Virus record (IMG/VR): IMGVR_UViG_3300029319_009044
Location: 106,909 to 170,908 of that record
Length of the DNA: 64,000 bases
From: a virus
Reading direction: 5' to 3' (one strand)
Within the stretch, counting starts at the first letter, position 1; each line of letters begins with the position of its first letter. Positions 9,814 through 57,753 of the stretch are shown here, one piece after another. Made by a program: the position numbers and the translations under genes. Below the pieces are notes generated by a model that saw only the letters and a program-made list of their open reading frames with translations, did no database searches and was not told the origin of the DNA.

Positions 9814-9843
9814 ATTATTATTTATGCTAGAATAAATAATTTT

Positions 9844-22600: not shown

Positions 22601-23500
22601 GCTTATTCCAACCTTTCCATTTGGACATATAGAAATTTGATTTTGATTGTTTGTTTGTATATGAAAAGTATCTGCGCCTTGTGTTCCTACATAACCATCA
22701 GTAAGTGCCTTTATATTAACTGTTGAACCACTACCTTCAGCTCTCATTTCTACACCATTAGAGGTGTCTTTTACGTGTAAAGCCTTTCTACTACCAGTTG
22801 TAGGCTTTGGAACATTAGTACCAATACCAACGTTACCATCAAAGTAATTAGGATCAGAACCAGCAGCACTTAAACTTCCACTAGCGCTAATGTTACCATC
22901 TACAGTTAGTTTTTCAGCTGGTGATGATGTTCCTATACCTACATTATCTCCATTAGAAGCATTAAGAAGTGTATCACCATCAGCCTTTAAAGTAATTTCA
23001 GCACCCCCAGTACCTTGGTATGTAATAAAAAAATCAGAATCATTACCACCATCAGCGTGATAAAAATTAACATTATCACTACCACCGCTTCCATTATCAA
23101 TACGCAACCCCCCTGTACTTCCATGACCTTGTATGTGAAATTTTGCGCTCGGGGTACTTGTACCTATACCAACATTCTGACTAGTATCAATAGTCATAGC
23201 TGTTGTATCAGCAGTCTCAAAAGATAAATTTTTACTAGCTATTGTGCCAACCTCTAAACCGTTAGCATTATTATATCTAATAAGAGAGCTATTGCTCGCT
23301 TGACTTAATCTTATAGCAGCACCGTTAGTGTCGCTATTAATATGTAATGTAGTTTTAGAGCCGTTTGCAGAGGGAACATTAGTACCAATACCAACGTTAC
23401 AAGCAAAATAATTGGGATCACCACCATTTCCATTGGCACTTAAAGAACCAGCAGCACTTATTCCAGCTGTAGAAGTAATCTTTACACAATTGTTAGCCAT
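16649..23500 (-). CDS. Giant repeat-rich tail fibre / adhesin protein (2283 aa)
   Basis: Multiple NVGIGT..P repeats, DVDGTTNLDAVDIDG repeats, C-terminal T.TIP.N.SVAFPVG...W...GDL fibre domain. Confidence 0.8.
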   Translation of the reverse strand: MANNCVKITSTAGISAAGSLSANGNGGDPNYFACNVGIGTNVPSANGSKTTLHINSDTNGAAIRLSQASNSSLIRYNNANGLEVGTIASKNLSFETADTTAMTIDTSQNVGIGTSTPSAKFHIQGHGSTGGLRIDNGSGGSDNVNFYHADGGNDSDFFITYQGTGGAEITLKADGDTLLNASNGDNVGIGTSSPAEKLTVDGNISASGSLSAAGSDPNYFDGNVGIGTNVPKPTTGSRKALHVKDTSNGVEMRAEGSGSTVNIKALTDGYVGTQGADTFHIQTNNQNQISICPNGKVGISTSDPVSSLHVAGSVYISDNTTIMGNLSVHGDQTFIDTHISTTSALSVVNAGTGPALTVKQDGSQPIAHFIDFDGDDIVFDDNGRVGIGTYSPTDYNANADDLVIKRTGHAGITIASGTSQDGNLYFADGTSGSEPYRGWVRYRHADDALTFGTEGAEKIRVCSDGDVGIGTTTPTADTKLDVAGSAIIQGSSNRGLSATCADSINYFAGTVGIGTTTPPQELSVKGEITTLNTSGIQVVTMQRSSNHGQFIINDSGGNNKVCLRSDGNNVFLCPVNIGSTTASGALNVATSCQLRLGDGDNFRIFHNGTSNRVESHGGNIIFYQYDHGDDIAFCAENSSGTVHEYYRIDSSAETNLFKRDVTVGVDGTGHDVIFYGDTASAYLQWDQSEDTLKTAGGAFVDIVKDKLKIGGTAVTTTAAELNLLDGLGSIPGACCEGTVTSIGTGTGLNGGTITNSGTIAVDAAQTGITSILATDLKIGEDDQTKIDFETADEIHFYAANAEQVYVADGVFGPQTDSDVDLGTNSVRWKHGHFDDITVNDNLIINTSLFCSCNTTDASSSSTGAARFLGGVGIAKKLYVGTDLDVDGTTNLDAVDIDGNVQVDGTLCVGSDGTGYDVKFFGDASGEYMQWDTSEAKLKIVHTDESVGLEVYTNAAEQSSQPQLKVGRGTNQYYGVVVNDRCANIIHRQDETSGSMETRFLQWDSNTSDTNATWKWMHGNGSGGSLATAMTLSQGGNLTLPGNIDVDGTTNLDAVDIDGAVQIDNTINVGADDTGYDVKFFGDTASAYMLWDASADDLILGGAAGLCVAGNADIDGTLEADAITVGGTALNTVIAGVTVTNAQNATNSCNLNIADNESTDENDLIPFIADAGSTGNVALESDGDFHYNPSTGTVTATIFKGNIDAVDGDFDGTLEADAITVGGATLASVIEGTTVTNATNATNAAHVCITDNESTNEENQIAFVENAAGGTANRGLEADGDFTYNPSSGTVTATVFKGNIDAVDGDFDGTLEADAITVGGTALNTVIAGVTVTNAQNATNSCKLNIADNESTDENDLIPFIADAGSTGNVALESDGDFHYNPSTGTVTATVFSGNFSGCITQASQTNITSLGTLTTLTVDDITINDSTISDAGDLTIDAGGDIILDADGTDIILKDGGTEFGSFKRVSSDFVIKSATSNKDILFKGNDDGATITALTLDMSNAGMACFNNTIHTGGNICIENGGPKLCLIDSTDDDDHSIQFVNNTGAVDYEIRTTDPTSGGGADGFYIGSCQSDGEVVIFTNDTHALTLSPTQKATFADEVCMGNSKLVLNGTAVDATAAELNLLDGKSSLVTCVGGGDGLTGSVTSSGNLAVGAGTGITVNANDVAVTAAQTGITSILATDLKIGEDDQTKIDFETADEIHFYAANAEQVYVSDGVFGPETDSDVDLGTSSARWKSGHLDNITVVSNSTLNDVSVGNLDVETGLFCVCTATDASSSSTGAARFLGGVGIAKKLYVGTDLDVDGTTNLDAVDIDGNVQLDGTLTVGVNDTGYDVKFYGATADRFLRWVQSEDRLKLTDNTRLSLGGGNDLQLYHDGSHSYIKDIGDGGLYLQTDGPAIYLQDTDGNAMAQFTDGGSSFLMHNGSTMLNTDASGTVVTGRLCVTGGNTSLQLNPAGSGNCTILTGCNCSVTDSGVLRIGIPSGGGAFSNGAALGDVVIRNETTSGDLILTSVSGEVHLGSGGTDGDTQLKITDGAILPVADDSIDLGSSSNEFKDAYFDGTVTADGLSVVADATITGSLVVDDMTFNGSNITDAGDFYIDVGGDINLDAAGNNICLLADGTNFADLFKSSDHFFLKNPILNGDIKFQVNDGGSGITALTIDGSDAGTATFNNNVCVTGMVRQAVGISCNTADYTLALADHGKLVEMNKSSAVCVTIPPNSSVAFPVGAEVTLFQGGAGQVTILAGSGVTARSADNELKTRVQYSTAVLTKIATDEWLIAGDLTA
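19335..20149. repeat. Near-identical 236-bp direct repeat (19335-19570 and 19914-20149) within fibre gene 1
   Basis: Compared by eye; only a few mismatches. Confidence 0.85.
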
Positions 23501-23521: not shown

Positions 23522-26500
23522 TTACATCTTGCGAACCATCGCTTTTACTATGTGAGATTCACCATTACCACTTTCTAATGCTTGTGCGATAATAGTTCCA
23601 TGAATTGTATTTGTAGATCGTTCACCATGTCCAGGTTTATTAGACGTGGTTATATAATCCCCTATCTTAATTTCTCCAGTTACTAACACAGGCTCAGCTC
23701 CTAGAACTATTGGCTGTTTAGCGCCTTTTTGTGTTACACCAAATACATTCTTATCATTTCTCTTAGTAGAAAGTATTAATTTACCATCTTTTCCTATTAC
23801 TACTAAAGAACCGGTTTCATACTCTGCTAATTCATCATTAGCTGCTTTTTCCTCAAAGTATCCTCCAGCTATAACACAATCAAAATAACCATTTCCTGAA
23901 GCACATACATCACCAGTAACACATACACCACCAGTTGTAGTCTGTATTTTTACAGAGTTGTTATAGTAAAGATTTACTGCGCCAGCTCCACCTGCAGTAA
24001 TCATATCTTGTCCATCTTTATCTTCTATCTGTACAGTGTTACCTGATCCTGGTCTTATATATAAACTACCAGCTCCACCTTCAGCAGTTATAAAATTGTG
24101 ACCACCACTATGGTAAATTTGTAAATCGTCATCATCTCCAATTTTCAAATGAGTATTATCAGTCAAACATAAAGCATTTTCGCTTTCATCCCACTTCAAG
24201 AACCTATCAGCTGTTGCTCCAAAAAATTGAACGTCATAACCTGTATCATTAACACCAACAGTTAGGGTACCATCTAATTGTACATTACCATCGATATCAA
24301 CTGCATCAAGATTAGCTGTACCGTTAACGTCTAAATCAGTTCCAACATATAATTTTTTAGCTATTCCTACACCACCTAAAATTTGAACGGCTCCTGTAGA
24401 TGAGCTAGATGCATCAGTTGCAGTACATACACATAGATTTCCAATCTCTACATCTAAGTTTCCAACTGATACATCATTCAAAGTTGCATCACTACCAACA
24501 GTAATATTGTCTAAGAACCCACTTTTCCATCTAACTGAACTCGATCCTAAATCAACATCACTATCTGTTTGCGGTCCAAAGATACCATCAGCAACATAGA
24601 CTTGTTCGGCGTTAGCAGCATAAAAATGTATTTCATCAGCTGTCTCGAAGTCAATCTTAGTTTCGTCATCTTCACCTATCTTAAGATCAGTTGCAAGAAT
24701 AGACGTAATGCCAGTCTGAGCTGCATCAACATTTAAAGTAACTGTTCCTGATGTACCTCCGCCATTTAAACCTGTACCGGCTGTTACACCTTCAATATCA
24801 CCTGTAGTTGGTGTATGCCAACAGATTCCACTACCAGTAGAAGCTAATACTTGACCGCTACTACCTTGGGACCCAGCAATAGTTAAATTATCTAATTCAA
24901 CTGTACCATCAAAGAAAGCATTATTAAATTCTAAAGCATCTGTACCTAAATCTACAATAGCATTTGAACCTGGTGTTAAAAACCCATCAGTTAATATTAA
25001 TTGCTTTTCGTCTCCAGCATAAAAGTTTATTGTATCTGCTGTCTCGAAGTCAATCTTAGTTTCATCATCTTCTCCTATTTTAATATCAGTTGCAAGAATT
25101 GATGTTATGCCTGTTTGAGCTGCAGCTACTGCTAAGTTTCCAGCTGAAGTAACAGCTCCCGTTAACCCAGTACCAGCTCCAACACATGTTACAGTACCAA
25201 GACAATCTGTAGCAGCATTAATTTGAGCAGCTGTTCTTGTAACAAGAGTAGATCCTATGGTTAATTTACTTTCTGGTAGAGTTAGACCAGCGGCACCTCC
25301 AAGTATTAAATCGTCTTCTGAAGCATCCCATAACATATATGCACTAGCCGTATCACCAAAGAACTTAACATCGTAGCCTGTATCATCAACACCAACAGTT
25401 AATGTACCATCTAATTGTACATTACCATCGATATCAACTGCATCAAGATTAGCTGTACCGTTAACGTCTAAAGTAGTTAAAGTACCTAAAGATGTTATAT
25501 TGGTTTGAGCTGCAGTTTGTAGAGTACCTGCTAGTTGTGTTGCTGTTACTCTTCCAGTAGAAGGATTATAATGCAAATGGCCATCCGATTCCAAAGCAAC
25601 ATTACCAGTTGAGCCGGCATCAGCAATGAAAGGTATTAAGTTATCTTCATTAGTATCTTCGTTATCAGCTATATTTAACTTACATGAGTTAGTAGCATTC
25701 TGTGCTGTGGTTACAGTTGTTCCTTGAATAACAGATGCTAAAGTAGCCCCTCCAACTGTTATTGCATCAGCTTCAAGAGTACCGTCGATGTCTGCATCAC
25801 CGGATACGCATAACCCTGCGGCGCCCCCGAGTATTAAGTCATCTGCTGAAGCATCCCATAACATATATGCGCTAGCTGTATCACCAAAGAACTTAACATC
25901 ATAACCTGTATCGTCTACACCAACAGTAACAGTACCATCTATCTGAGTAGTACCATCTATATCAACTGCATCTAAATTAGTAGTACCGTCGATATCAACA
26001 TTACCTGATATCTCTAACTCCGTTGCAATAACCTTATTGTTAAATGTAGCAGCTCCCGCCTCAGACATGTCAAGAGTGAGGGCTGCAATAGCTGAACCAT
26101 TATCAGAACCACAAAATTTAATATCTTTATCATCGATTAAACTTTGTATTAAAAAATTATCACTTCCATCTTTTCTTAATTTACCAAAAGCTGTACCATC
26201 TACTAATAAACAAACATCGTTTCCTGCTGCATCGAGTTTAATATCACCTCCGGAGTCTAATATCATAGTACCACCATCTGATATAGTTGAACTATTAATA
26301 GTAATACCACCAGCAACTATTTTATCAACGTAAGCATCTTTCCATCTAACTAAATTTGTACCTAAATCAACATCGCTATCAGATTGTGGACCAAATATAT
26401 TATCGCCTAGATATACCTGTTCTGTATTATTAGCATAAAAATGTATTTCATCAGCTGTCTCGAAGTCAATCTTAGTTTCATCATCTTCACCTATCTTAAG

Positions 26501-29500
26501 ATCAGTTGCAAGAATTGATGTTATACCTGTTTGAGCTGCATCTACACTTAATGAAGGTGTTGTACCACCCGTTGAAGTTAGTCCTGTACCACCAGCTACA
26601 CTTGTTACTGTACCAAGACAATCTGTAGCAGCATTAATTTGAGCAGCTGTTCTTGTAACAGAAGTGCCCCCTATATGTAAACAGTTTTGAGGAATACATA
26701 ATTTAGCTGCTTCTAAGCATAGATGGTCGTTACCATCATTTGCACACCAACACATATAAACTCCTGAACAAAGACCAAATAATTTTACGTTTTTGCCTTG
26801 AGTATTACAACCAACAGTTAATGTACCATCTAGTTGTACATTACCATCTATATCAACTGCATCTAAATTAGTAGTGCCATCTACATCTACATTACCAGCT
26901 ACGCATAACCCAGCTGCTCCACCAAGTATTAAGTCATCTACTGAAGCATCCCATAACATATATGCGCTAGCTGTATCACCAAAGAATTTTACATCATAAC
27001 CTGTATCGTCTACACCAACAGTTAGAGTACCATCTAGTTGTGAAGCGCCATCAATATCTAAAGAGTCACCTTTAACCTCACCAGTTACATCAATACCAGT
27101 GTTTGTTGTTTCTAACTTCTTAGAGTTGTTAAAATATAAATCAACAGAGTCTCCTTTATTAAGAACAGCCATATTATGGCTATTGTTATATCCTTGAATT
27201 TTTACCTGATCGTTCGCTCTTAAAATAAGATCGCCAGTATCTGTGTCATCAATATAACTATTACTACCATCATGATAAATTTGTAAGTCACCATCATCTC
27301 CTATTTTTAACGGAGTGCTATCAGTTAAACATAATGCATCTTCACTTTCGTCCCACATCATGAAGCTACCAGCTGTTGCTCCAAAGAACTTAACATCATA
27401 TCCCGTGTCATCTACACCAACAGTAACAGTACTATCTATTTGTACAGCACCGTCTATATCAACTGCATCAAGATTAGTAGTACCATTAATATCAGCATCG
27501 CCTTCTATATCAAGCGAAGCAGCATCTAATTCACCAGTTAGAGTTATATTTCTAAAACCTGTTATATCTTTATTTGTATCAACAATAACTGCTTTATTAG
27601 CAGCAACTATGCCATCGGTTATAGAGTTAATTTGATTAAGCTCTGCAGCAGTAGAATCAACTGGAGTACTATTCAGAACTAATTTAGAGTCTCCTATACA
27701 AACTTTATTATTGAAAGTAGCAGTACCAGCATCAGACATATTAAACGTAAGAGCAACTGTTTGTACACCACCATCATTTCCGCAGATAATTAAATTTTGA
27801 TCACTAATTTTACTTTCTACTACAAAATTACTACTATTATTTCTTAATCTTCCAAACTCTGTACCACCGTCTTTTAAACAAATATCACCGCCATTAGCAT
27901 CAAGTACGAGATCTGCTTCAGCGTCTATTATTAGTGTACCACCATCTGATATAGTTGAACTATTAATAGTAATATCACCAGCAACTATTTTATCAACGTA
28001 AGTATCTTTCCATCTAACACCGCTAGTCCCTAAATCTACATCACTATCAGTTCGAGGACCAAAGATACCATCAGCAACATAAACTTGTTCAGCATTAGCA
28101 GCGTAGAAGTGAATCTCATCAGCTGTCTCAAAATCAATCTTAGTTTCGTCATCTTCTCCAATTTTAATATCAGTAGCTAGTAAAGATGTAATAACTGTTT
28201 GAGCAGCATCTACATTTAAAGTAACAGCTCCTGATGTACCGCCACCATTTAAACCCGTACCTGCTGTTACACCTGTAATATCACCTGTAGTTGGAGTATG
28301 CCAACAGATTCCGCTACCAGTAGAAGCTAATACTTGACCGTTAGCACCTTGAGAACCACAAATTTTTATATTATCTAATTTAACTGTACCATCAAAGAAA
28401 GCATTATTAAACTCTAAAGCATCTGTTCCTAAATCTACTGCAGCATTCGAACCCGGTGTTAAAAACCCATCAGTTAATATTAATTGCTTTTCATTATCGG
28501 TATAAAAGTTTATGGTATTTGTATCTTCAAAATCAATCTTAGTTTCATCATCTTCTCCTATTTTAATATCAGTAGCTAAAATAGAAGTAATACCTGTTTG
28601 AGCAGCAGCTACGGCTAAGTTTCCAGCTGAAGTAACGGCTCCTGTTAATCCAGTACCAGCTCCAACACATGTTACAGTACCTAAGCAATCTGTTGCAGCA
28701 TTAATTTCTCCGCCTGTTTTTGTAACAAGAGTAGATCCTATGGTTAATTTACTTTCTGGTAGAGTTAGACCAGCGGCACCTCCAAGTACTAAATCATCAG
28801 TAGATGCATCCCATAACATATATGCGCTAGCAGTATCACCAAAGAACTTAACGTCGTATCCTGTATCATCAACGCCAACTGTAACTGTATTGTCTATTTG
28901 TACAGCACCGTCTATATCAACAGCATCGAGATTAGCTGTACCATCTACATCAAGATCAGTTCCAACATATAATTTTTTAGCTATTCCTACACCACCTAAA
29001 ATTTGAACGGCTCCTGTAGATGAACTTGATGCATCAGTTGCAGTGCAAACACATAGATTTCCAATCTCTACATCTAAGTTTCCAACTGATACATCATTCA
29101 AAGTTGCATCACTACCAACAGTAATATTGTCTAAGAATCCACTTTTCCATCTAACTCCAGTTGTACCTAAATCTACATCACTATCTGTTTGAGGACCAAA
29201 AACACCATCAGAAACATGAACTTGTTCTGTATTGTTTATATTAAAAAATAAACATTGACCGGATTTTGCGTTTAAGCCAGTTGCTCCACTTGCATTCTGT
29301 TTAACAGCATAATTTGTTGAAGTACCATTATCAAAATGAGAAAAATAGGCATTGTCACCTACATAATTACCAATTCTTGACTGACCTATAACAGCATTTG
29401 TTGGGTTATCAGCATTTACACATAAATTATTTCCTGAATAAAGAACACCGCTAGCACTTATATTACCAACAACTGAGATTTTTTCACCGGGGGTGAATGT

Positions 29501-30304
29501 GCCTACTCCAAGCTTACCATCATCTGCAAAAATTATATCTCCTCCATTTTTATCTATAAAATGAGCAATAGGTTGTGTACCGTCTTGACGAACAAATAAT
29601 GCAGGACCGGTACCTGTATTAACTACAGATAGAGCTGATGTAACACTAACGTTAGTATCAATATAATGCATGTCTCCATGCACGCTTAGATTACCTAATA
29701 TTGTACTATCACCGTCAATATTTAAATTACATCTAGCACTTAAATTACCATTTACTTCAATAGTAGTACCGAGTTCACTTATGAGACTATCGCCTATACA
29801 AGATGAAGCGGTAAACTTAGGTATTTTATTTATAGTACCAGCTCCACCTACTCCACCTGCCGCTCCACCTGCGCCAAATATGTCTAAAAGATCTGTACCA
29901 CCAGAAATAAAAGAAGAAGCAGCAAAAATTGAATTAGCACTTAAGTTACTTCCCGCACTTATAAATCCTGTAACCGTTAAATTACCTTCAATATCATTTA
30001 CACTACCACCACTTCCAGTATTTTCTACAAATTTAACTCCACCTTGCCCATCAGCTGCTAATATTAACCCTTCAGATATATTAGTAGTTTTTAAATCAAT
30101 ACTTTCTACTACTACTTGATCACTACTTAATGGCTCACCTCTCCATTTACCTAGATAACTTCCAGAAGATATACCTGTACCAAATATAGTATTAGAAGAA
30201 CTAATACCTCCTGCTACAGTAAGTTGTTGCTCGGGTTTAGTCCCTATTCCTATTTTACCAAGGAATACGTTATTTTGACCTTCAAATGTTCTAATGAGCC
30301 CCAT
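23522..30304 (-). CDS. Giant repeat-rich tail fibre protein (2260 aa), paralogous to 16649-23500
   Basis: Shares KIGEDD.TKIDFETADEIHFYA, TGYDVKFFGDTASAYMLWDAS, GGVGIAKKLYVG modules; C-terminal G.I.IGD.ITTS..PG domain. Confidence 0.8.
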   Translation of the reverse strand: MGLIRTFEGQNNVFLGKIGIGTKPEQQLTVAGGISSSNTIFGTGISSGSYLGKWRGEPLSSDQVVVESIDLKTTNISEGLILAADGQGGVKFVENTGSGGSVNDIEGNLTVTGFISAGSNLSANSIFAASSFISGGTDLLDIFGAGGAAGGVGGAGTINKIPKFTASSCIGDSLISELGTTIEVNGNLSARCNLNIDGDSTILGNLSVHGDMHYIDTNVSVTSALSVVNTGTGPALFVRQDGTQPIAHFIDKNGGDIIFADDGKLGVGTFTPGEKISVVGNISASGVLYSGNNLCVNADNPTNAVIGQSRIGNYVGDNAYFSHFDNGTSTNYAVKQNASGATGLNAKSGQCLFFNINNTEQVHVSDGVFGPQTDSDVDLGTTGVRWKSGFLDNITVGSDATLNDVSVGNLDVEIGNLCVCTATDASSSSTGAVQILGGVGIAKKLYVGTDLDVDGTANLDAVDIDGAVQIDNTVTVGVDDTGYDVKFFGDTASAYMLWDASTDDLVLGGAAGLTLPESKLTIGSTLVTKTGGEINAATDCLGTVTCVGAGTGLTGAVTSAGNLAVAAAQTGITSILATDIKIGEDDETKIDFEDTNTINFYTDNEKQLILTDGFLTPGSNAAVDLGTDALEFNNAFFDGTVKLDNIKICGSQGANGQVLASTGSGICWHTPTTGDITGVTAGTGLNGGGTSGAVTLNVDAAQTVITSLLATDIKIGEDDETKIDFETADEIHFYAANAEQVYVADGIFGPRTDSDVDLGTSGVRWKDTYVDKIVAGDITINSSTISDGGTLIIDAEADLVLDANGGDICLKDGGTEFGRLRNNSSNFVVESKISDQNLIICGNDGGVQTVALTFNMSDAGTATFNNKVCIGDSKLVLNSTPVDSTAAELNQINSITDGIVAANKAVIVDTNKDITGFRNITLTGELDAASLDIEGDADINGTTNLDAVDIDGAVQIDSTVTVGVDDTGYDVKFFGATAGSFMMWDESEDALCLTDSTPLKIGDDGDLQIYHDGSNSYIDDTDTGDLILRANDQVKIQGYNNSHNMAVLNKGDSVDLYFNNSKKLETTNTGIDVTGEVKGDSLDIDGASQLDGTLTVGVDDTGYDVKFFGDTASAYMLWDASVDDLILGGAAGLCVAGNVDVDGTTNLDAVDIDGNVQLDGTLTVGCNTQGKNVKLFGLCSGVYMCWCANDGNDHLCLEAAKLCIPQNCLHIGGTSVTRTAAQINAATDCLGTVTSVAGGTGLTSTGGTTPSLSVDAAQTGITSILATDLKIGEDDETKIDFETADEIHFYANNTEQVYLGDNIFGPQSDSDVDLGTNLVRWKDAYVDKIVAGGITINSSTISDGGTMILDSGGDIKLDAAGNDVCLLVDGTAFGKLRKDGSDNFLIQSLIDDKDIKFCGSDNGSAIAALTLDMSEAGAATFNNKVIATELEISGNVDIDGTTNLDAVDIDGTTQIDGTVTVGVDDTGYDVKFFGDTASAYMLWDASADDLILGGAAGLCVSGDADIDGTLEADAITVGGATLASVIQGTTVTTAQNATNSCKLNIADNEDTNEDNLIPFIADAGSTGNVALESDGHLHYNPSTGRVTATQLAGTLQTAAQTNITSLGTLTTLDVNGTANLDAVDIDGNVQLDGTLTVGVDDTGYDVKFFGDTASAYMLWDASEDDLILGGAAGLTLPESKLTIGSTLVTRTAAQINAATDCLGTVTCVGAGTGLTGAVTSAGNLAVAAAQTGITSILATDIKIGEDDETKIDFETADTINFYAGDEKQLILTDGFLTPGSNAIVDLGTDALEFNNAFFDGTVELDNLTIAGSQGSSGQVLASTGSGICWHTPTTGDIEGVTAGTGLNGGGTSGTVTLNVDAAQTGITSILATDLKIGEDDETKIDFETADEIHFYAANAEQVYVADGIFGPQTDSDVDLGSSSVRWKSGFLDNITVGSDATLNDVSVGNLDVEIGNLCVCTATDASSSSTGAVQILGGVGIAKKLYVGTDLDVNGTANLDAVDIDGNVQLDGTLTVGVNDTGYDVQFFGATADRFLKWDESENALCLTDNTHLKIGDDDDLQIYHSGGHNFITAEGGAGSLYIRPGSGNTVQIEDKDGQDMITAGGAGAVNLYYNNSVKIQTTTGGVCVTGDVCASGNGYFDCVIAGGYFEEKAANDELAEYETGSLVVIGKDGKLILSTKRNDKNVFGVTQKGAKQPIVLGAEPVLVTGEIKIGDYITTSNKPGHGERSTNTIHGTIIAQALESGNGESHIVKAMVRKM
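24335..29156. repeat. ~200-bp direct repeat (24335-24536 and 28955-29156) and a longer ~600-700 bp diverged duplication (~24750-25400 vs ~28230-28880) in fibre gene 2
   Basis: Compared by eye; related copies also near 18105-18300 and 20855-20940 in fibre gene 1. Confidence 0.8.
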
Positions 30305-34831: not shown

Positions 34832-35662
34832 ATGAACATAAAATCTATTTTAACAGCTATTCTTTTATCTAGTGGTTTAGTATTCTCTTCAAATGAAATT
34901 TACTTAGATCAGATAGGTAGTGCAGGTATATTTAATATATCTCAAATTGGATCTAGTAACAAATTAGGAGAAGGTAATAATCGATCTAGAATTGAAGGAG
35001 AAGAAGTTATTTTTAATGTAGCAACTATAGGTAATGAAAATTTAATAGATATTGACTCTATAGGAAATGAAGAAGTAGTAAATCTTCAAGTAGAAGGCGA
35101 TGCTAATGACTTTATTTTAGCTCTTGAAGGTGATCAAAATACTGTAAATGCTTTTGTAGCAGGAGATACTAACAGCATTTTAATTGCAGGAGACCAGGAA
35201 GATACACAAAAAGCTACTGTAAATAATGGATTAATAAATTTAAATGTTGAGGGTGCTTCAAATGATATAGAGTTATTACTATTTGATACATCATATACTT
35301 TTACAGATTATTTTATTGGTGGCTCTTTAAATACCATTAGCTCTTATCAAGAAGGTCATGGTGGTTTAATTGGACATTCACAACTAGTTGATGTTTTTGG
35401 TAGTAGTAATAATTTATTAATATCTCAAGTAGGTTCTGAAAGTCAATTTATTGAGCTCTCAGTTTTAGGAAATGAAAACACATATCAAATATATCAAACA
35501 GATGGAAGCTTTGATCCATCATTCATGCCTGAGCAAATTGGTAACGAGGTTAACCCAGTTAACGATTTTTCAAATCCCGATGGTATTCCAAAAGTTCCAA
35601 CACTTGTTATCGAGCCACGTCCATTATTACTCGAAGGTATTGTTCTCGAACAGGGTCAGTAA
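34832..35662 (+). CDS. Secreted curlin-like beta-solenoid repeat protein (CsgA/CsgB-like)
   Basis: Signal peptide; NEIYLDQIG, ISQIGSSN, QVEGDAN, LEGDQN, VAGDTN, VEGASN repeats; follows csgG. Confidence 0.7.
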   Translation: MNIKSILTAILLSSGLVFSSNEIYLDQIGSAGIFNISQIGSSNKLGEGNNRSRIEGEEVIFNVATIGNENLIDIDSIGNEEVVNLQVEGDANDFILALEGDQNTVNAFVAGDTNSILIAGDQEDTQKATVNNGLINLNVEGASNDIELLLFDTSYTFTDYFIGGSLNTISSYQEGHGGLIGHSQLVDVFGSSNNLLISQVGSESQFIELSVLGNENTYQIYQTDGSFDPSFMPEQIGNEVNPVNDFSNPDGIPKVPTLVIEPRPLLLEGIVLEQGQ

Positions 35663-49398: not shown

Positions 49399-49582
49399 TT
49401 TAGAGTACATCTATCCTCAAGATTTAAAAATGTGGGCAAAATGCGCGGGTCGTAAATTTTTAGAGGCTGAAGAAAAAATTAAAACTCTATCTACTAAAAA
49501 TATATCAGCCAGCGCGTATTGGGATAGAGATAGTAACATTGCAATTTTATTAGAGTGCGGTAAAATATATACGTATAGTTAA
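49391..49582 (+). CDS. Hypothetical protein
   Basis: ORF in operon. Confidence 0.5.
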   Translation: MDDLEYIYPQDLKMWAKCAGRKFLEAEEKIKTLSTKNISASAYWDRDSNIAILLECGKIYTYS

Positions 49583-50445
49583 TGAAAAATGTTATTATAA
49601 AACAAGGAGGAGGTATAGGTGATATATTATATTCTTTAAAAATAGCTCAAAAAATTTATAAAACAAATAACTGTAATATTATATGGCCTATCAATTCACA
49701 TATACTTTCTGATTTTCAAGACTATATAAAAATACCTTATATAGAATGGGTAGATGAAAAGGATTATAAATGGTTAGATGATTATAACTATTTTGTAAAC
49801 GGGGAGTTAATACCAAGTAGTTTAAAAATTGATAAAGAAACTGTAGTCTTTCCTTTATGTGAAGCAGCTAATAATCCCGACGGATCTTTTAAAGGAGGGC
49901 CTATAATGGGCAAAAAATATTCTACATTTAAATTAAGTCAGGCTAATTGGCAAGACAGTATAAAGATAACTAGAAATGTAGAAAAAGAAAATGAGTTATT
50001 CTATAAAGTGTTGAATCTAGATGATAATTGTAAGTATGTTTTTGTACATAAAATATACAGTACCCCGAGCCATGGATTATTAAAAAGTACATTTATGCCA
50101 GATGATTTTCTTCCTGATTGGGAAAAGGATTATGAAGCTCTAGTAACAGGAGCTTGTTTAGAAGAATATTCTGTATTCGACTGGATTAAAGTTTTTGAAA
50201 ATGCTGCTGATATTCATGTAGTATCAACTTGTTTATTTTATATATTTGAATCATTAGAAAAAAAATTACCTGAAATCAAAATTTATAATAGAGATCACTA
50301 CACTAATTTAGGTCAATTGTATTGTATGAAGCCAACTTTAAGACAAAAATGGAAGTTTCAAGAAGCTATGGAACGACACTATCGTGGTAATGCAAAATCA
50401 AAAAAAGCTAGTCATAATAAAATTCTAATAGAAAGAGAAGCTTAG
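49582..50445 (+). CDS. Putative glycosyltransferase (GT9/heptosyltransferase-like)
   Basis: N-terminal GGIGDIL, later FDW..VFENA..IH..ST; adjacent to ADP-heptose genes. Confidence 0.5.
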   Translation: MKNVIIKQGGGIGDILYSLKIAQKIYKTNNCNIIWPINSHILSDFQDYIKIPYIEWVDEKDYKWLDDYNYFVNGELIPSSLKIDKETVVFPLCEAANNPDGSFKGGPIMGKKYSTFKLSQANWQDSIKITRNVEKENELFYKVLNLDDNCKYVFVHKIYSTPSHGLLKSTFMPDDFLPDWEKDYEALVTGACLEEYSVFDWIKVFENAADIHVVSTCLFYIFESLEKKLPEIKIYNRDHYTNLGQLYCMKPTLRQKWKFQEAMERHYRGNAKSKKASHNKILIEREA

Positions 50446-50452
50446 AGTAGTT

Positions 50453-50959
50453 ATGATAGATACGATACTATATAAAAATAAACATTATCCTAAATTTCAA
50501 ACGCTTGGTAATGCTGCGCAATTTGCTATACCATATGCTTTACACGTATGTAAAGGTGAAGGAGTTGATATAGGCTGTTCAAAAGTAGAATGGGCTTTTC
50601 CTGGAGCTAGACCTATTGATTTAAATTTTAATGATAATTATGATGCTTATAATCTACCTTATGATAAAAATTCTTTAGATTATATATTTTCTTCTCATTG
50701 TTTAGAGCATCTTCCTAATTGGGTTGAAGCATTAGATTATTGGACTTCTAAATTAAAAAATGAAGGTACTTTATTTTTATATGTACCTCATTATAGTCAA
50801 GAATATTGGAGACCGTGGAATAATAAAAAACACATCCATTGTTTTACAGGGGAAGAAATTGTAGATTATTTAAACAGCTCTGGTTATAAAAAGGTTTTTA
50901 GATCTATGCCTGATTTAAACAATTCAATAATGATAACTGCAGAAAAAAATAATGAATAA
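50453..50959 (+). CDS. SAM-dependent methyltransferase (type 11)
   Basis: GVDIGC, DYIFSSHCLEH, LK..GTLFLYVP. Confidence 0.85.
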   Translation: MIDTILYKNKHYPKFQTLGNAAQFAIPYALHVCKGEGVDIGCSKVEWAFPGARPIDLNFNDNYDAYNLPYDKNSLDYIFSSHCLEHLPNWVEALDYWTSKLKNEGTLFLYVPHYSQEYWRPWNNKKHIHCFTGEEIVDYLNSSGYKKVFRSMPDLNNSIMITAEKNNE

Positions 50960-51344
50960 TAAAGTTATTTTTACTAATGGTTGTTTTGATATTTTGCATA
51001 TTGGTCATATTAGACTTCTTAAATATGCAAAATCACTTGGTAATCATCTCATAGTAGGTCTTAACTCTGATGAAAGTATAAAAAGATTAAAAGGTTATGA
51101 TAGACCCTTTAATAAGCTTGAATATAGAAAAGAAGTTATCGAGAGTATAAAGTGGGTAGATGAAGTAAGAATATTTACTGAAGATACACCTTACAATTTA
51201 ATTAAAGACTTAAAACCTGATATAATGGTTAAAGGTGGTGATTATACTCCTTCAACTGTAATAGGTAGTGATATATGTAAAGTAGAGATTTTTAATTTAG
51301 TAGGTAATATATCTACAACACAGATTTTAAATCATGTCAAATAA
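50952..51344 (+). CDS. rfaE2: Heptose 1-phosphate adenylyltransferase (HldE/RfaE domain II)
   Basis: FTNGCFDILHIGH, VGLNSD.S..RLKG..RP, KPD..VKGGDY, STT. Confidence 0.92.
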   Translation: MNNKVIFTNGCFDILHIGHIRLLKYAKSLGNHLIVGLNSDESIKRLKGYDRPFNKLEYRKEVIESIKWVDEVRIFTEDTPYNLIKDLKPDIMVKGGDYTPSTVIGSDICKVEIFNLVGNISTTQILNHVK

Positions 51345-52080
51345 TATTTTACTTATAGGAGAGCATTGCATTGACGTGTACCATTACGGCAAATGTAGTA
51401 GATTAAATCCAGAAGCTCCTGTACCTATTTTAAATGAAGAATATATAAGAAAAATAGAAGGAATGGCATCTAATGTTAAAAATAATTTAGTAAATTTAGG
51501 ATTTAAAATCGATCATTACAAAAATGAGGAAATTATAGAAAAGCATAGACTAGTAGATATAAATTATAAACAGCAGCTATTAAGATATGATATCGAAAAT
51601 AAATTAAAAAAAATAGAAGTAAAACATATTGAGGGGGATTACGATATTGTAATCATAAGCGATTATGATAAAGGACTCATTACAAGAAATGTTGCAGAGT
51701 ATATTTGTAATAAGTACAAAGATAAACCTATATTTGTGGATTCAAAGAAGAAAGATCTTACGTGTTATAGTAATTGTTTTTTAAAAATTAATGATAATGA
51801 ATATAATAATTTAAAATCATATAATAAGAGTAACTGTGAGCTAATAATCACAAAAGGTAGATTTGGAGCAACATATAAGTTTAAAAATTATCCAGCTGAA
51901 AAAGTTGATGTTTATGATGTTTGTGGAGCAGGTGATGTATTTTTAGCGGGACTTGTATATGGCTATTCAAAAAGTAAAGATATAATAGAAGGCATTAAGA
52001 TAGCAAATAAGCTAGCAAGTATATCAGTAAGTAAATTTGGAACTTATGTTTTAACTATAAAAGATATAAACACAATTTAA
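51334..52080 (+). CDS. rfaE1: Heptose 7-phosphate kinase (HldE/RfaE domain I, PfkB family)
   Basis: RLNPEAPVP, ISDYDKG, VYDVCGAGDVF. Confidence 0.88.
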   Translation: MSNNILLIGEHCIDVYHYGKCSRLNPEAPVPILNEEYIRKIEGMASNVKNNLVNLGFKIDHYKNEEIIEKHRLVDINYKQQLLRYDIENKLKKIEVKHIEGDYDIVIISDYDKGLITRNVAEYICNKYKDKPIFVDSKKKDLTCYSNCFLKINDNEYNNLKSYNKSNCELIITKGRFGATYKFKNYPAEKVDVYDVCGAGDVFLAGLVYGYSKSKDIIEGIKIANKLASISVSKFGTYVLTIKDINTI

Positions 52081-52081
52081 G

Positions 52082-52450
52082 ATGAAAAATTTTGCAGAGA
52101 TAAAATACGTACCTAAAGGATGGGGTTATGAGAAATGGATAGTAAACAAAGATGAATATTGTGGCAAAATCTTATGGTTCTCAAAAGGTAAGAAATGCTC
52201 ATGGCACTATCATAAAATAAAAGATGAAGTATTTTACGTACGTAAAGGTAAGCTATTAGTTCGATATGGTTTAGATAAAGACATAACTAAATGCGATGAA
52301 GTATTACTAATTCCTGGAGATAATTTTCACGTACCTGTAGGACTTATACACCAGATGGAAGCTATTGAAGAAACAGAAATGTTTGAATTTTCAACTAAGC
52401 ATAGAGATTCTGATAGTTATAGAGTTCTAGAAGGGGATGTAATTATTTGA
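52082..52450 (+). CDS. Cupin, mannose-6-phosphate isomerase/lyxose isomerase-like
   Basis: VPKGWG.E.W, CSWHYH..KDE.F, H.P.G..H. Confidence 0.75.
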   Translation: MKNFAEIKYVPKGWGYEKWIVNKDEYCGKILWFSKGKKCSWHYHKIKDEVFYVRKGKLLVRYGLDKDITKCDEVLLIPGDNFHVPVGLIHQMEAIEETEMFEFSTKHRDSDSYRVLEGDVII

Positions 52451-52483: not shown

Positions 52484-52624
52484 ATGGCAAAAAAGACTAA
52501 TAGTACTACCTGGAAAGTTAGCGATAAAAAACCTAAAAAAACTAGACAAGGAATCTCTAGAAATTCTAAAGGTCATAAAAAATATCGCGGTCAAGGTGGT
52601 CCCTGTAAGCGAAGAAAGAAGTAG
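52484..52624 (+). CDS. Small very basic protein (46 aa, ...KKTRQG.SR.S...KKYRGQG)
   Basis: Translated by hand; KKYRGQG motif common in marine T4-like phages; own promoter. Confidence 0.7.
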   Translation: MAKKTNSTTWKVSDKKPKKTRQGISRNSKGHKKYRGQGGPCKRRKK

Positions 52625-52655
52625 TTTTCTACGTTAACAACGCATAAATATTGTT

Positions 52656-54395
52656 ATGGTGAAAGCTATAACAATATTTTTATGTCTACTTTGCTCTAAT
52701 ATTCTAGCAAATCAAATAGATCATAGTAAAGAAATAGATAAAATTATTGCTAATGATCTTAAAAATAAAAGAATTGAGTTACCTATAGTAGTTAACCCCT
52801 TTGTATTTGTAAGAAGAGCGTATATCGATATTGCTGGTAGAGTTCCAACATATCAAGAATGGAAGACGTTTATAAAGAGACCTGATAGGAAAAAATTAAT
52901 TGAAGATCTTCAAAACTCTAAAGGTTATACTGAAAGTATGTTTAACTTTTATGCTGATCTTCTTAGAATAAAGAGACGTCTTTCAAACAATATTGATGGT
53001 GATACATATATAACTTGGGTTAAACAAGAAATAGAAAATAATACACCATATGATGAGTTTATTAAAAAGATATTAACTGCAGAAGGTAACATATGGGAAA
53101 ATCCAGAAGTGGGTTATTTCTTAAGAGATGAAGGGATGCTTCTCGATAATGTTAGTAATACATTTCAAGCTTTTGCTGGAATGAATATAAGTTGCGCGCA
53201 ATGTCATGATCACCCATTTGATGATTGGACGCAGATGGATTATTATAATATGTCAGCATTCTTTACACAGTTAAATACTAGAGGTAAAAAAGAAGATAGA
53301 AAAGAGTTTCAGCGATTAAGAAAAGAAGCTGAAGAGTTAGATAAATCTGGAAAGCAAAAAGGGTCAACAAATAGAATCGGGCAATTTTATAGACATGGTT
53401 ATCAGCATACTATAGTGCAGGATCAAGATAAAAAATTAAAGCTTCCTGATGATTATAAGTATAGAGATGCTGAACCCGGAGAAGTAGTAAAGGCCGAAAC
53501 TGCAGTAGGGGATAGAGTTAAAGAAAAGCGTAAGAGAGAAGGGTTAAGAGAAAGTTTCGCAAATTGGTTAGCTAATGACACGCATCCAACATTTGCTGCT
53601 AATATTGTAAACCGGTTGTGGGATAGATCATTTGGCTTTCCGTTAATAGATAATTTAAATGAAGTAGCTTTATTTGATGAAATAAAGGATGGGCGTAACA
53701 CTCGATTAATAGAATACTTAGTTAAAGTAATGAAAGAGGTTGATTATGATTTGAAGAAGTTCAATAATATTTTATATAATACAAAGTTCTATCAAGCTAA
53801 AATTGATCCGGATAACGAGTTTAAAGGACCTGTTCTAAGAAGAATGACAAGTGCACAATTGTGGGACTCTATAGTAACTTTATATCAAGGCGACCCAGAC
53901 AAGTGGCAGCCTAAGGATAGGAAGCAGGATTATATAGATCTGTTTACAGGTCTACAATCTATGCCTGTAGATGAAGCTTTAAAAAAATGGAATCAATATA
54001 CTAAAATAAGAGGTAGTTATTATGAAGGAGCTCCTAAAATAAAGGGTAATTTAGTAGTTAGATCATCGCATATATTTGAAGGTAGAAATGCAAACTTTTT
54101 AAGAGAGTTTGGTAGGTCTGATAGAGAGCTTATTGAAACCGGGAACGAACAACCAAACATAACTCAAATATTAAATTTAATGAACGGCAATGTAACACAA
54201 GCGCTTCAAGATCCTAATGGTTATGTAGCTAATCAAGCAAAAGATATGAAGCGAGAATTAGGAATGAATATAATTTTTATATCATATATTGGAAGAGCTC
54301 CTAATGATAAAGAAAGAGAATTATTAAAAGACGCAAGTTACGAAGATGTAGTATGGATACTAATTAACTCACATGAATTTAAACTAATAAGCTAA
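52656..54395 (+). CDS. DUF1549/DUF1553 (PSD2/PSD1) planctomycete-cytochrome-type exported protein
   Basis: Signal peptide; FVRRAYIDIAGRVPT, PYDEF...ILTAEG, CAQCHDHPFDDWTQ.DYY (CxxCH), NIVNRLW, RRMTSAQLWDS, FGRSDRE, WILINSHEF. Confidence 0.92.
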   Translation: MVKAITIFLCLLCSNILANQIDHSKEIDKIIANDLKNKRIELPIVVNPFVFVRRAYIDIAGRVPTYQEWKTFIKRPDRKKLIEDLQNSKGYTESMFNFYADLLRIKRRLSNNIDGDTYITWVKQEIENNTPYDEFIKKILTAEGNIWENPEVGYFLRDEGMLLDNVSNTFQAFAGMNISCAQCHDHPFDDWTQMDYYNMSAFFTQLNTRGKKEDRKEFQRLRKEAEELDKSGKQKGSTNRIGQFYRHGYQHTIVQDQDKKLKLPDDYKYRDAEPGEVVKAETAVGDRVKEKRKREGLRESFANWLANDTHPTFAANIVNRLWDRSFGFPLIDNLNEVALFDEIKDGRNTRLIEYLVKVMKEVDYDLKKFNNILYNTKFYQAKIDPDNEFKGPVLRRMTSAQLWDSIVTLYQGDPDKWQPKDRKQDYIDLFTGLQSMPVDEALKKWNQYTKIRGSYYEGAPKIKGNLVVRSSHIFEGRNANFLREFGRSDRELIETGNEQPNITQILNLMNGNVTQALQDPNGYVANQAKDMKRELGMNIIFISYIGRAPNDKERELLKDASYEDVVWILINSHEFKLIS

Positions 54396-54396
54396 T

Positions 54397-55599
54397 ATGA
54401 ACAGACGACTATTTATACAAACCCTAGCAGCATCTACTTACGGTCTTAAGACATTAGATGCTAAAGATGCACCAATTGCTTCTAAAGCTAAAAATGTTAT
54501 TTACATTTGCTTAGATGGAGGTATGAGCCATATTGACTCTTTTGATCCTAAAGATGATAAAGAGGTAATGGGTGATACTACAAAGATAAGCACTAAGGTA
54601 AGTGGTATTGAATTAGGTAACAGATTACCTAAATTAGCAGAAGTAGTAGATAAAATGTCAATTATAAGATCTACTCATTCTAAAACTGGTGCTCATGAAC
54701 AAGCTCAATACCTTAATAGAACATCTTATAGACAGATAGGTAGTATAGTACATCCTAGTTTGGGTTCTTGGGTAGCTCATATTCAAGATAGAGAAAAAGA
54801 TATTCCGGATTATGTTTTAATTTCTGGGTCTTCTGCTCATCCTAATTCTGGATTTTTACCTAAGGTAAAATCTCCTCTTCCTATTATAGATCCAAATGGC
54901 GGGTTAAAAAATTCTAAAGTAGATAGTAAGCTAGAAGAGAGAATGAACATATTAAGAGAAATTAATAGTAAATTTAAAGCTCCGTTAGCTACAGAGTATA
55001 ATGAGTTCTATGACAATACAGTAAGATTTTTAAAATCTAAAGATTTAGAATTATTTGACTTAACTAAAGAAAAGCCAGAAGCGAGATCTGCATATGGTAA
55101 TACTAAATTAGGACAGGGATGTCTTTTAGCTAAGCGTTTAATTAAAGGAGACATTAAGTTTATAGAGATTAATAACGGCGGTTGGGATACACATGTAGAC
55201 AACTTTACTAAGTTGGATAATAAGCTCAAAGAAGTGGATGATGCATTAAGTGCGCTAGTATTGGATCTAGATAGTGAAGGTCTTTTAGATACAACGCTAA
55301 TAGCTCTTGTAACTGAGTTTGGTAGAACCCCTAAGATAAATGTTAATGATGGTCGTGATCATCATCCATCTTGTTATTCAACAGTTCTTATAGGAGCAGG
55401 AGTTAAGGGTGGTTATGTAGCTGGTGAGACAAATAAATCAGCTTCTAAAGTAACTAAAGACCCTTATACTATATCCGATATTAATGCCACTATAGCTCAT
55501 CTATTAGGTATTGAAGCTGAAAAAGAAAGATTTTCTCCTACAGGAAGGCCATTTAAGGTTGCTAATAAAGGTGAAATAATTAAAGATATTTTAGCATAA
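54397..55599 (+). CDS. DUF1501 protein with Tat signal
   Basis: MNRRLF; AKNVIYI.L.GGMSHIDSFDPK, HPSLGSW, YG....GQGCLLA.RL, GGWDTH..NF, TEFGRTP..N...GRDH. Confidence 0.92.
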   Translation: MNRRLFIQTLAASTYGLKTLDAKDAPIASKAKNVIYICLDGGMSHIDSFDPKDDKEVMGDTTKISTKVSGIELGNRLPKLAEVVDKMSIIRSTHSKTGAHEQAQYLNRTSYRQIGSIVHPSLGSWVAHIQDREKDIPDYVLISGSSAHPNSGFLPKVKSPLPIIDPNGGLKNSKVDSKLEERMNILREINSKFKAPLATEYNEFYDNTVRFLKSKDLELFDLTKEKPEARSAYGNTKLGQGCLLAKRLIKGDIKFIEINNGGWDTHVDNFTKLDNKLKEVDDALSALVLDLDSEGLLDTTLIALVTEFGRTPKINVNDGRDHHPSCYSTVLIGAGVKGGYVAGETNKSASKVTKDPYTISDINATIAHLLGIEAEKERFSPTGRPFKVANKGEIIKDILA

Positions 55600-55631
55600 A
55601 AAAAGCGTCCTTGTATACAAGGACGCTTTTT
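55598..55631. terminator. Bidirectional intrinsic terminator
   Basis: Perfect palindrome AAAAAGCGTCCTTGTA/TACAAGGACGCTTTTT between convergent genes. Confidence 0.9.
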
Positions 55632-55649: not shown

Positions 55650-56123
55650 TTAAAACTCGAATGAAAGACCAAGTCTAAGCTCGGTATCATCATCTTCAGC
55701 GTCAAAATCGTAACCTAAGGTATAAGTAGCAAATACTGCTTTACCATCACCGATCTCATACGATACACCAGCACCAGCACGAATGTCGAATCCAATATCG
55801 TCTGTATCAACCCAATTAAGGCCAACACCACCAATAGCAGAAACAGTACATCCATAAACTTCAGTCACATCGTAAGATGCACCAAGGTCGAAATTAAGAT
55901 CACCGCTACCAAATTCAACAGCAGGCTTAAGATCTACCTCAACACCAGCGAGGGCGATTGGAGCAGTAGTACCAACAACAAGACTATAATCACCATCGGT
56001 CTTTGATACACCAATGCTATAGTCAGTTAATTCAACACCTGCTACAGTTGCAGCTGCAGCGGGTCCAACAAAGGCCACAAAAGCAAAAGCAGTTGCAGCG
56101 AGTAATGTAGTTACTTTTTTCAT
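55650..56123 (-). CDS. Small outer-membrane beta-barrel protein
   Basis: Signal peptide MKKVTTLLAATAFAFV..., amphipathic strands, C-terminal LGLSFEF (BAM signal). Confidence 0.75.
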   Translation of the reverse strand: MKKVTTLLAATAFAFVAFVGPAAAATVAGVELTDYSIGVSKTDGDYSLVVGTTAPIALAGVEVDLKPAVEFGSGDLNFDLGASYDVTEVYGCTVSAIGGVGLNWVDTDDIGFDIRAGAGVSYEIGDGKAVFATYTLGYDFDAEDDDTELRLGLSFEF

Positions 56124-56175
56124 ATATCTATATTTATTATATAATATCAATATATAGATGCAACTAAATATTTAA

Positions 56176-57343: not shown

Positions 57344-57753
57344 TGGTGGAGGTGAGGGGAGTCGAACCCCTGTCCATTAAGTTATCAAAATAACTGTCTA
57401 CATACTTAGATATATTCTATTTTAAGGATATATGGTTATATCAACCATCCTACATTTCTTTTATCAGTAATGCTTTGACTTAGCTTAAAATTACATTAAT
57501 TGCTAAAATTAATAACTCATTACATTACCCAAACACTTTAATGAGAATCCATGTTTGTTTTTATGCGGCGAGAAGGGCTTCTTCTTGAACCAAGAACGCG
57601 TCAGGGTTGTTGAAGATTGCTTCTGCTTCCGCAAGAAGGTCTGCTTCTTCTTGTTCTGCAGTTATGTATTTAATCGGCTTTTAACGTGGCCAACCGATCA
57701 ACCACGATATGCGAGCTATAAATCCAATATAATGTCGAATCCATTGCACCCCC
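57344..57753 (-). ncRNA. ssrA: tmRNA (SsrA)
   Basis: 5' GGGGGTG..GGATTCGAC; 3' GACAGGGGTTCGACTCCCCTCACCTCCACCA; G3:U70 pair; resume context ATAACT-GCA; tag ORF 57659-57561 ending ALLAA*. Confidence 0.95.

Follow-up and report, generated by a model that had tools for sequence, protein, structure and literature searches.

A DUF1549/DUF1553–DUF1501 gene pair of planctomycete and verrucomicrobial type in uncultured aquatic T4-like phages

The two genes and their signals

The 64,000-nucleotide stretch of DNA analysed here (the window) comprises bases 106909–170908 of the 170.9-kb IMG/VR record IMGVR_UViG_3300029319_009044, whose completeness was estimated by CheckV at 81%. It encodes a portal protein, a major head protein (MCP), a tail-sheath stabiliser, a helicase and a class I ribonucleotide reductase (RNR), and its source is a genuine T4-like myovirus, aquatic and uncultured. 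An earlier note, made from the letters of the window, had singled out two adjacent genes as a module typical of the Planctomycetes–Verrucomicrobia–Chlamydiae (PVC) bacteria, carried by the phage as a self-contained late operon. The coordinates and all the elements described for this two-gene unit were found to be present. The genes are called here open reading frames (ORFs) A and B, and the unit has the following features.

52645–52650, + strand: TAAATA, within CATAAATA, resembling the core of a T4-type late promoter, 5 nucleotides (nt) ahead of the ORF A ATG (52656)
52656–54395, + strand: ORF A, 579 amino acids (aa), exported-type protein with PSCyt2 (DUF1549) and PSD1 (DUF1553) domains (from Pfam)
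52656–52709, + strand: predicted Sec-type signal peptide of ORF A, residues 1–18, MVKAITIFLCLLCSNILA (read from the translation)
53193–53207, + strand: CAQCH, the CxxCH motif of the PSCyt2 domain, residues 180–184 (from the translation)
54397–55599, + strand: ORF B, 400 aa, DUF1501 protein with a predicted, distant alkaline-phosphatase (AP)-superfamily fold (from Pfam, a structural model and Foldseek)
54400–54420, + strand: twin-arginine motif of ORF B, N-R-R-L-F-I-Q (from the translation)
55600–55631, both strands: perfect palindromic hairpin with A5 and T5 flanks, between convergent genes (from folding)

The Pfam scan called for in the earlier note placed all three domains far above their cut-offs. 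ORF A matched PF07583 (PSCyt2/DUF1549) with an E value of 1.6e-38 (133.2 bits, cut-off 29.8) and PF07587 (PSD1/DUF1553) with an E value of 2.3e-18 (66.9 bits, cut-off 28.5), and both domains were found in all 23 aligned ORF A homologs. ORF B matched PF07394 (DUF1501) with an E value of 3.5e-97 (326.5 bits, cut-off 27), the match covering positions 1–390 of the 390 in the profile. ORF A carries these two domains only, the minimal architecture, and lacks PSCyt1 and carbohydrate-binding modules; phage A proteins (577–615 aa) are the shortest form of the family, the bacterial members of which measure 635–1110 aa.

Export signals were judged at the motif level, from the N-terminal sequences of the two proteins. 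ORF A begins with MVKAITIFLCLLCSNILA, followed by NQ after the predicted cleavage point, an N-terminus that has the shape of a signal peptide for the general secretion (Sec) pathway, and an equivalent hydrophobic N-terminus is present in all phage A homologs. ORF B begins with MNRRLFIQTLAAS...LDA, then KD; it opens with MNRRLFIQ, which reads as a motif for twin-arginine translocation (Tat), and the RR pair is kept at the N-terminus of phage B homologs, as read from the junction sequences. These conserved Sec-type and twin-arginine N-termini are what the proposed periplasmic location rests on, and they suggest that both proteins would be exported.

ORFs A and B are co-oriented, with A upstream, and a 1-nt gap separates the stop codon of A from the start codon of B. 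Ahead of A, CATAAATA agrees with the T4 late promoter TATAAATA at 7/8 positions. The arrangement TAAATA-N5-ATG was seen 19 times in the window compared with 2.9 expected (100 shuffles, maximum 8), other sites including those at 9833, 11515, 14907, 33472, 34821 and 56165. If TAAATA is a T4-type late -10 element, the mRNAs made from these 19 sites would be leaderless or nearly so. In 22 of the 23 related phage loci checked, TAAATA precedes the start codon of A by 5–13 nt, whatever the genomic position of the pair, and it is from this motif that the pair may be taken to be expressed late, as had been proposed. Across sublineages, A kept its signal peptide and the upstream TAAATA, B kept its RR motif, and the two genes stayed closely spaced or overlapping. 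As far as such motifs can tell, these signals fit a self-contained, late-transcribed and translationally coupled two-gene unit.

The palindrome that follows ORF B is perfect and folds with about -21 kcal/mol and a z score of about -7 on either strand (-21.1 kcal/mol and z -6.6 on the + strand, -20.1 kcal/mol and z -7.3 on the - strand), and on each strand the stem is followed by a U-run. The palindrome is likely to act as a bidirectional intrinsic terminator, in keeping with the role first suggested for it. A simple terminator scan missed this hairpin, and base-pairing between its A and T flanks is the probable reason.

Distribution, selection and origin of the pair

A search of viral contigs recovered the pair from more than 40 independent IMG/VR contigs. 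DUF1501 relatives with 68–99% identity were found on 15 further contigs, and a tier with 46–52% identity on 27 more. ORF A lay directly upstream of ORF B in every viral locus with enough upstream DNA, the flanks were homologs of genes of the window phage, and the A and B reading frames were intact in all loci examined. Across sublineages the pair occupied at least five distinct genome positions: after the RNR block, as in the window phage, immediately upstream of the tail-sheath stabiliser/portal/MCP genes, and at three others.

The presence of bacterial-type genes on a metagenomic contig could result from mis-assembled host DNA, or from a recent capture, functionless and decaying. Some relatives do not carry the pair, and a public copy, from a metagenome-assembled genome (MAG) named 'Roseibacillus sp.', does sit on a chimeric contig. 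In that contig (L150/L151; G001:C36, which is PBAI01000036.1), the first ~4.6 kb belong to the lineage of the window phage and have a G+C content (GC) of 30–36%, the GC then switches abruptly to 52–60% for the rest, and ambiguous bases are found at the join. The pair, however, is on the phage side of this chimera with phage neighbours, the phage part also holding an outer-membrane protein (OMP)-like gene and a lysozyme gene; because PBAI01000036.1 is chimeric, MBG70831.1 is a phage protein and not a Roseibacillus one. The base composition of the pair argues in the same direction. The GC of A (0.32) and B (0.33) is that of the phage (0.322 for the genome, phage mean 0.324), as expected from the AT-rich phage composition described for them at the outset, compared with a mean of 0.60 for cellular homologs; GC at third codon positions (GC3) is 0.21 for A and 0.165 for B; it averages 0.165 in the phage and 0.725 in cellular homologs. 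A chimeric join to host sequence, the danger named in the earlier note, is excluded because the pair lies among syntenic phage genes on over 40 independent contigs of IMG/VR and has the GC and GC3 of the phage.

Pairwise ratios of nonsynonymous to synonymous substitution rates (dN/dS) against relatives were 0.046–0.087 for ORF A and 0.028–0.068 for ORF B. Judged from these values (0.03–0.09), the pair is under strong purifying selection. With upward of 40 independent viral contigs, drawn from many samples, phage GC3, low dN/dS and intact frames, an artefact or a dead passenger is effectively excluded, and the pair is very probably a real, functional and exported module of the phage. The description of the pair as a long-term resident likewise holds, in view of its full amelioration, its single phage clade and its dN/dS.

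The same description had the phage carrying a single copy. This is the case for the window phage, in whose record one copy of the pair was found, and it does not hold for many related phages, which carry near the pair a second, solo DUF1501 paralog with ~33% identity (26% in L006). Sites of solo paralogs are L103:5808-7064, L101:4736-6025, L123:6338-7603, L102:1324-2583(-) and L006:11203-12624. The solo paralogs form a clade of their own, apart from the pair-linked copies.

The nearest named cellular genomes belong to Planctomycetota and Verrucomicrobiota (38–46% identity), and among 401 evenly sampled Verrucomicrobiae genomes the best copy was 49% identical. The A-then-B arrangement was found in 64 of the 68 cellular loci. 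In a FastTree phylogeny of 130 rows, all 21 pair-linked phage B copies formed one clade (SH-like support 100) inside the PVC group. The same split was recovered with IQ-TREE under the site-heterogeneous LG+C20 model (54 rows), with a Shimodaira–Hasegawa approximate likelihood ratio test (SH-aLRT) support of 99; in this tree the phage clade joins Verrucomicrobiota and Planctomycetota clades at a polytomy. The comparison with bacterial copies that had been called for thus returned one phage clade among PVC sequences. Nineteen of 20 further database proteins fell inside the phage-type clade, one basal member was also present on pair-carrying viral contigs, and the database protein P0101 was not found on viral contigs. 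Within this sampling, the trees point to one capture from a PVC-type bacterium, followed by spread within phages. Opitutales were considered as a named donor and rejected, the Opitutia and Lentimonas copies not being sister to the phage clade in either tree.

Spread within phages may have involved transfer of the two genes together. In L012, the RNR genes are 90–94% identical to those of the window phage, yet A and B are only 57% and 68% identical. Conversely, in L003, L005 and L015 the RNR genes are 72–82% identical, yet A is 81–97% and B 93–98% identical. Because the divergence of the pair is decoupled from that of its flanks, the pair appears to be exchanged as a cassette among related phages.

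The MCP and portal proteins of the window phage are 29–34% identical to those of the best deposited phage among 50,697 records, the top matches being cyanomyophages, and at least 600 MCP-related contigs were found for its clade. The pair serves as a marker for a large clade of such phages, aquatic, T4-like and without a cultured relative, and is among the few clues to their hosts.

Neighbouring genes, host and candidate function

In the window, the pair stands between two small genes, listed here as context.

52485–52625, + strand: very basic (Lys/Arg-rich) ORF of 46 aa, directly upstream of the pair (from conservation)
55650–56150, - strand: OMP beta-barrel-like protein gene, 166 aa, convergent neighbour (Pfam OMP_b-brl, E 4.9e-4, below the cut-off)

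The basic ORF gave no family match and is 53–98% identical among loci with the arrangement of this phage; the OMP-like gene adjoins the pair only in loci sharing that arrangement. A five-gene sugar-nucleotide island (49582–52450, + strand; methyltransferase, cytidylyltransferase, PfkB kinase, cupin and one unknown gene) also precedes the pair directly. Its GC is the lowest of the window (27.5% over 50001–52000), and the island is variable, because it is restricted to this phage and L002. Elsewhere in the window, two giant ORFs adjoin each other on the - strand (16649–23500 and 23522–30304, 2283 and 2260 aa), in a stretch with a GC of 0.37–0.41, above the rest of the window. Downstream of the pair, a transfer-messenger RNA (tmRNA) gene (57344–57753, - strand) is genuine, full-length and one-piece (Rfam RF00023, 133.7 bits compared with a gathering score of 47), and is read by ARAGORN as encoding an unusually long tag of 32 residues ending in LLAA.

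Several routes to the host were tried and rejected. The 'Roseibacillus sp. SP52' MAG, which holds the 89%-identical copy, gives no host link, its contig being chimeric. The 3' end of the tmRNA is common to many phyla and gave only short universal-end matches to the 401 Verrucomicrobiae genomes, PVC phyla scoring only slightly above others (p 0.016). Alphaproteobacterial tmRNA is two-piece, and the one-piece form found here argues weakly against an alphaproteobacterial source of that gene. For the sugar-nucleotide island, a recent acquisition, no close cellular relative of the PfkB gene was found. A SAR11 host is neither supported nor disproved, the window phage not being close to HTVC008M or to any deposited phage; tblastn with the protein encoded at 34832–35662 returned nothing in the phage database. 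From the origin of the gene, a PVC host is a reasonable guess that could go either way.

As to function, the best overall explanation, and in our view a probable one, is that the pair is a PVC-derived accessory cassette of the phage encoding a two-part periplasmic enzyme system. The AlphaFold model of ORF A (pLDDT 84, pTM 0.87) is all-alpha. No solved relative of this protein was detected by sequence or by fold (best Foldseek E value 0.18; best Z score 5.1 across VIA). Its CxxCH motif begins a short helix in the model and is the only one in 579 residues; C180, A181, Q182, C183 and H184 are invariant among the 23 phage and PVC homologs. Three leads to distant relatives were dropped. DUF1800 is the partner of DUF1501 in other phyla, and no Pfam signal linked ORF A to it, even at an E value of 1. 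A search of the ESM Atlas with ORF A gave a best score of 0.81, inside the chance range. A resemblance of the PSD1 C-terminus to the phycobilisome linker/DUF4214 (Pfam E 0.0012 or weaker in 5/23, VIA Z 5.1) was too weak to use.

The CxxCH motif could make of the pair a redox module, in which A is a true c-type cytochrome that trades electrons with B, the two together acting as a periplasmic oxidoreductase; an electron-transport reading of the bacterial module was proposed by Kamneva et al. (2012; PMC3542564). The invariance of the motif in 23/23 homologs and its place at the start of a helix suit this idea, as do the putative Tat export of B, expected of a cofactor-loaded enzyme, and weak matches of two members to the di-haem peroxidase family CCP_MauG (E 0.012). 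Nevertheless, A has a single CxxCH per 579 residues and no match to a cytochrome fold at the scores given above, and the fold class of B contains hydrolases and transferases, not redox enzymes. We regard a redox module as unlikely.

The model of ORF B (pLDDT 76, pTM 0.81) matched 55 PDB chains in Foldseek at E values of 1e-3 or less, all of them from the AP superfamily, with template modelling (TM) scores of 0.3–0.42. These were YejM/PbgA, LtaS, sulfatases and phosphonate monoester hydrolases (E 4e-5 to 1e-3, Foldseek probability close to 1); a profile search of PDB sequences gave sulfatase matches, weak only. Residues S44, H45, D47, D50, K52, D264, H266, R320, D321 and H322 are invariant in B homologs, and this Ser/His/Asp/Arg set fits a putative metal-dependent active site.

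Because the top Foldseek matches are YejM/PbgA and LtaS/LtaP domains, B could also be thought to resemble LtaS, YejM/PbgA and phosphoethanolamine-transferase-like enzymes, and to alter the envelope or lipopolysaccharide late in infection, serving superinfection exclusion or helping lysis. In the window phage the pair adjoins the OMP-like gene and a lysozyme-domain gene, and envelope-related modules, CsgF/CsgG among them, are known from marine T4-like phages (PMC7029224). These neighbours, however, are not conserved, the pair being found at five or more genome positions; B is soluble, without the membrane anchor of LtaS or YejM; and the dozens of bacterial paralogs per genome (52 in one MAG) fit a diversity of substrates better than one envelope function. 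Envelope remodelling is thus an improbable account of the pair.

The two-part periplasmic enzyme system that we favour would have arisen and would work as follows. An ancestor of the large aquatic T4-like myovirus clade would have acquired the pair from a bacterium of the Planctomycetota/Verrucomicrobiota group, and the pair would since have been kept under selection while being moved or exchanged among related phages. A and B would be co-transcribed from the T4-type late promoter and translationally coupled across the 1-nt spacer, transcription ending at the bidirectional hairpin. The all-alpha protein A would leave the cytoplasm unfolded via Sec, and its invariant CxxCH could hold covalent haem or another metal; B, a DUF1501 enzyme of the AP superfamily, would leave folded via Tat. 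The two would meet in the host periplasm late in infection. There, B may be a metal-dependent enzyme, a hydrolase or a transferase, whose substrates are phospho- or sulfo-esters of the periplasm or envelope of the host; A would be the partner that binds the substrate or bears a cofactor, and the pair may supplement the host's own paralogs in nutrient release or in envelope/glycan processing. The assignment of B as an ester hydrolase, which derives from the structural model, is tentative, and is put forward with less than even confidence.

Several observations weigh against this explanation. No cytochrome fold was present among the Foldseek and VIA matches of ORF A, the 579-residue model having been searched whole and not domain by domain. 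For ORF B, the fold match is distant (TM of at most 0.42, identity 9–14%), the (C/S)xPxR formylglycine motif is absent from all 400 residues, and 'EF' stands in the alignment where sulfatases have the 'DH' metal pair. Finally, a complete (100%) relative of 229,717 bp (G405, the record of L191), whose MCP is 71% identical, has no DUF1501, and the pair was found in only 2/13 MCP-selected records, most of which are fragments. Since it has no formylglycine motif, B is not a type I sulfatase and, taken together with the distant fold and the change from 'DH' to 'EF', its chemistry may therefore differ from that of known AP-superfamily enzymes. Because the complete 229.7-kb relative is without DUF1501, the pair is accessory and not core.

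A bolder version of the two-part system is that the pair represents a new kind of periplasmic enzyme, in which a catalytic subunit of AP fold relies on an all-alpha partner that carries haem or a metal and has a novel fold. The chemistry of this enzyme would be unlike that of the hydrolases known in the superfamily, one example being the oxidative breakage of glycans that bear sulfate or phosphate groups, and the whole clade of aquatic phages would employ the enzyme to reprogramme the release of nutrients in hosts of PVC type. We consider this version a long shot; if it were true, the minimal phage form would be the key to a 20-year-old orphan family present in dozens of copies per PVC genome.

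Comparison with known systems

The PSCyt and PSD domains were first named in Rhodopirellula baltica. DUF1501 and PSCyt/PSD proteins are among the most expanded families of Planctomycetes and Verrucomicrobia, as illustrated by the 52 DUF1501 copies of a single MAG; no member of the family has a known function, and the redundancy of paralogs hampers genetics. The bacterial module has been described as a 'conserved genetic module' of Planctomycetes, Verrucomicrobia and Lentisphaerae, and its function is stated to be unknown in both reports (Kamneva et al., 2012, PMC3542564; He et al., 2017, PMC5615132).

The phage pair has the same three Pfam domains as the PVC module, in the same gene order and on the same strand. 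It also shares the signal peptide of A, the twin-arginine motif of B and the invariant CxxCH, and phage B branches among PVC sequences. It differs by its carrier, a T4-like phage of lytic type, and by its phage base composition and promoter motif. The phage A protein has the shortest architecture (577–615 compared with 635–1110 aa), without PSCyt1 or carbohydrate-binding domains; one pair is present per phage genome instead of dozens, with at most 49% identity to any sampled cellular copy. In conclusion, the phage pair shows every testable defining feature of the PVC module and is of the type described by Kamneva et al. (2012; PMC3542564), so that its naming as a PVC-signature module was correct.

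With the AP superfamily (type I sulfatases, phosphonate monoester hydrolases, LtaS and YejM/PbgA; PDB 1p49, 4upk, 4uop and 5i5h), ORF B shares its predicted core fold and a presumed extracytoplasmic location. It stands apart from these enzymes by its low identity (9–14%) and TM scores (at most 0.42), by the lack of a (C/S)xPxR motif and by the replacement of the sulfatase Asp-His pair; in addition, it has no membrane anchor, a Tat type of export signal and an obligate-looking partner gene.

Host-derived phosphate-acquisition genes for PstS and PhoA are carried by cyanomyophages. Pelagimyophages carry a CsgF/CsgG curli cluster (PMC7029224). The phage pair resembles these auxiliary genes of marine T4-like phages in that they encode periplasmic or envelope proteins of bacterial origin that phages have retained. 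Biochemical roles are known for PstS, PhoA and CsgF/CsgG and none for the phage pair, and the window lineage is only 29–34% identical in portal and MCP to deposited phages.

No published report of a DUF1501/PSCyt/PSD pair in a phage was found, the sole paper on 'DUF1501 + phage' concerning a weak match in a 61-aa protein. Neither PHROGs nor NCBIfam has a family that includes A, B or the solo paralogs, and no copy of the pair was detected in 50,697 deposited phage genomes. The literature, PHROGs and deposited genomes thus agree with the remark that the pair had not been described in a phage. The phage copy is a single one, cut down to a minimum (two domains plus one), under strong selection and self-contained in its transcription, and these qualities make it a practical construct for biochemistry and structure determination. 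What is new here is a known bacterial module in a new carrier.

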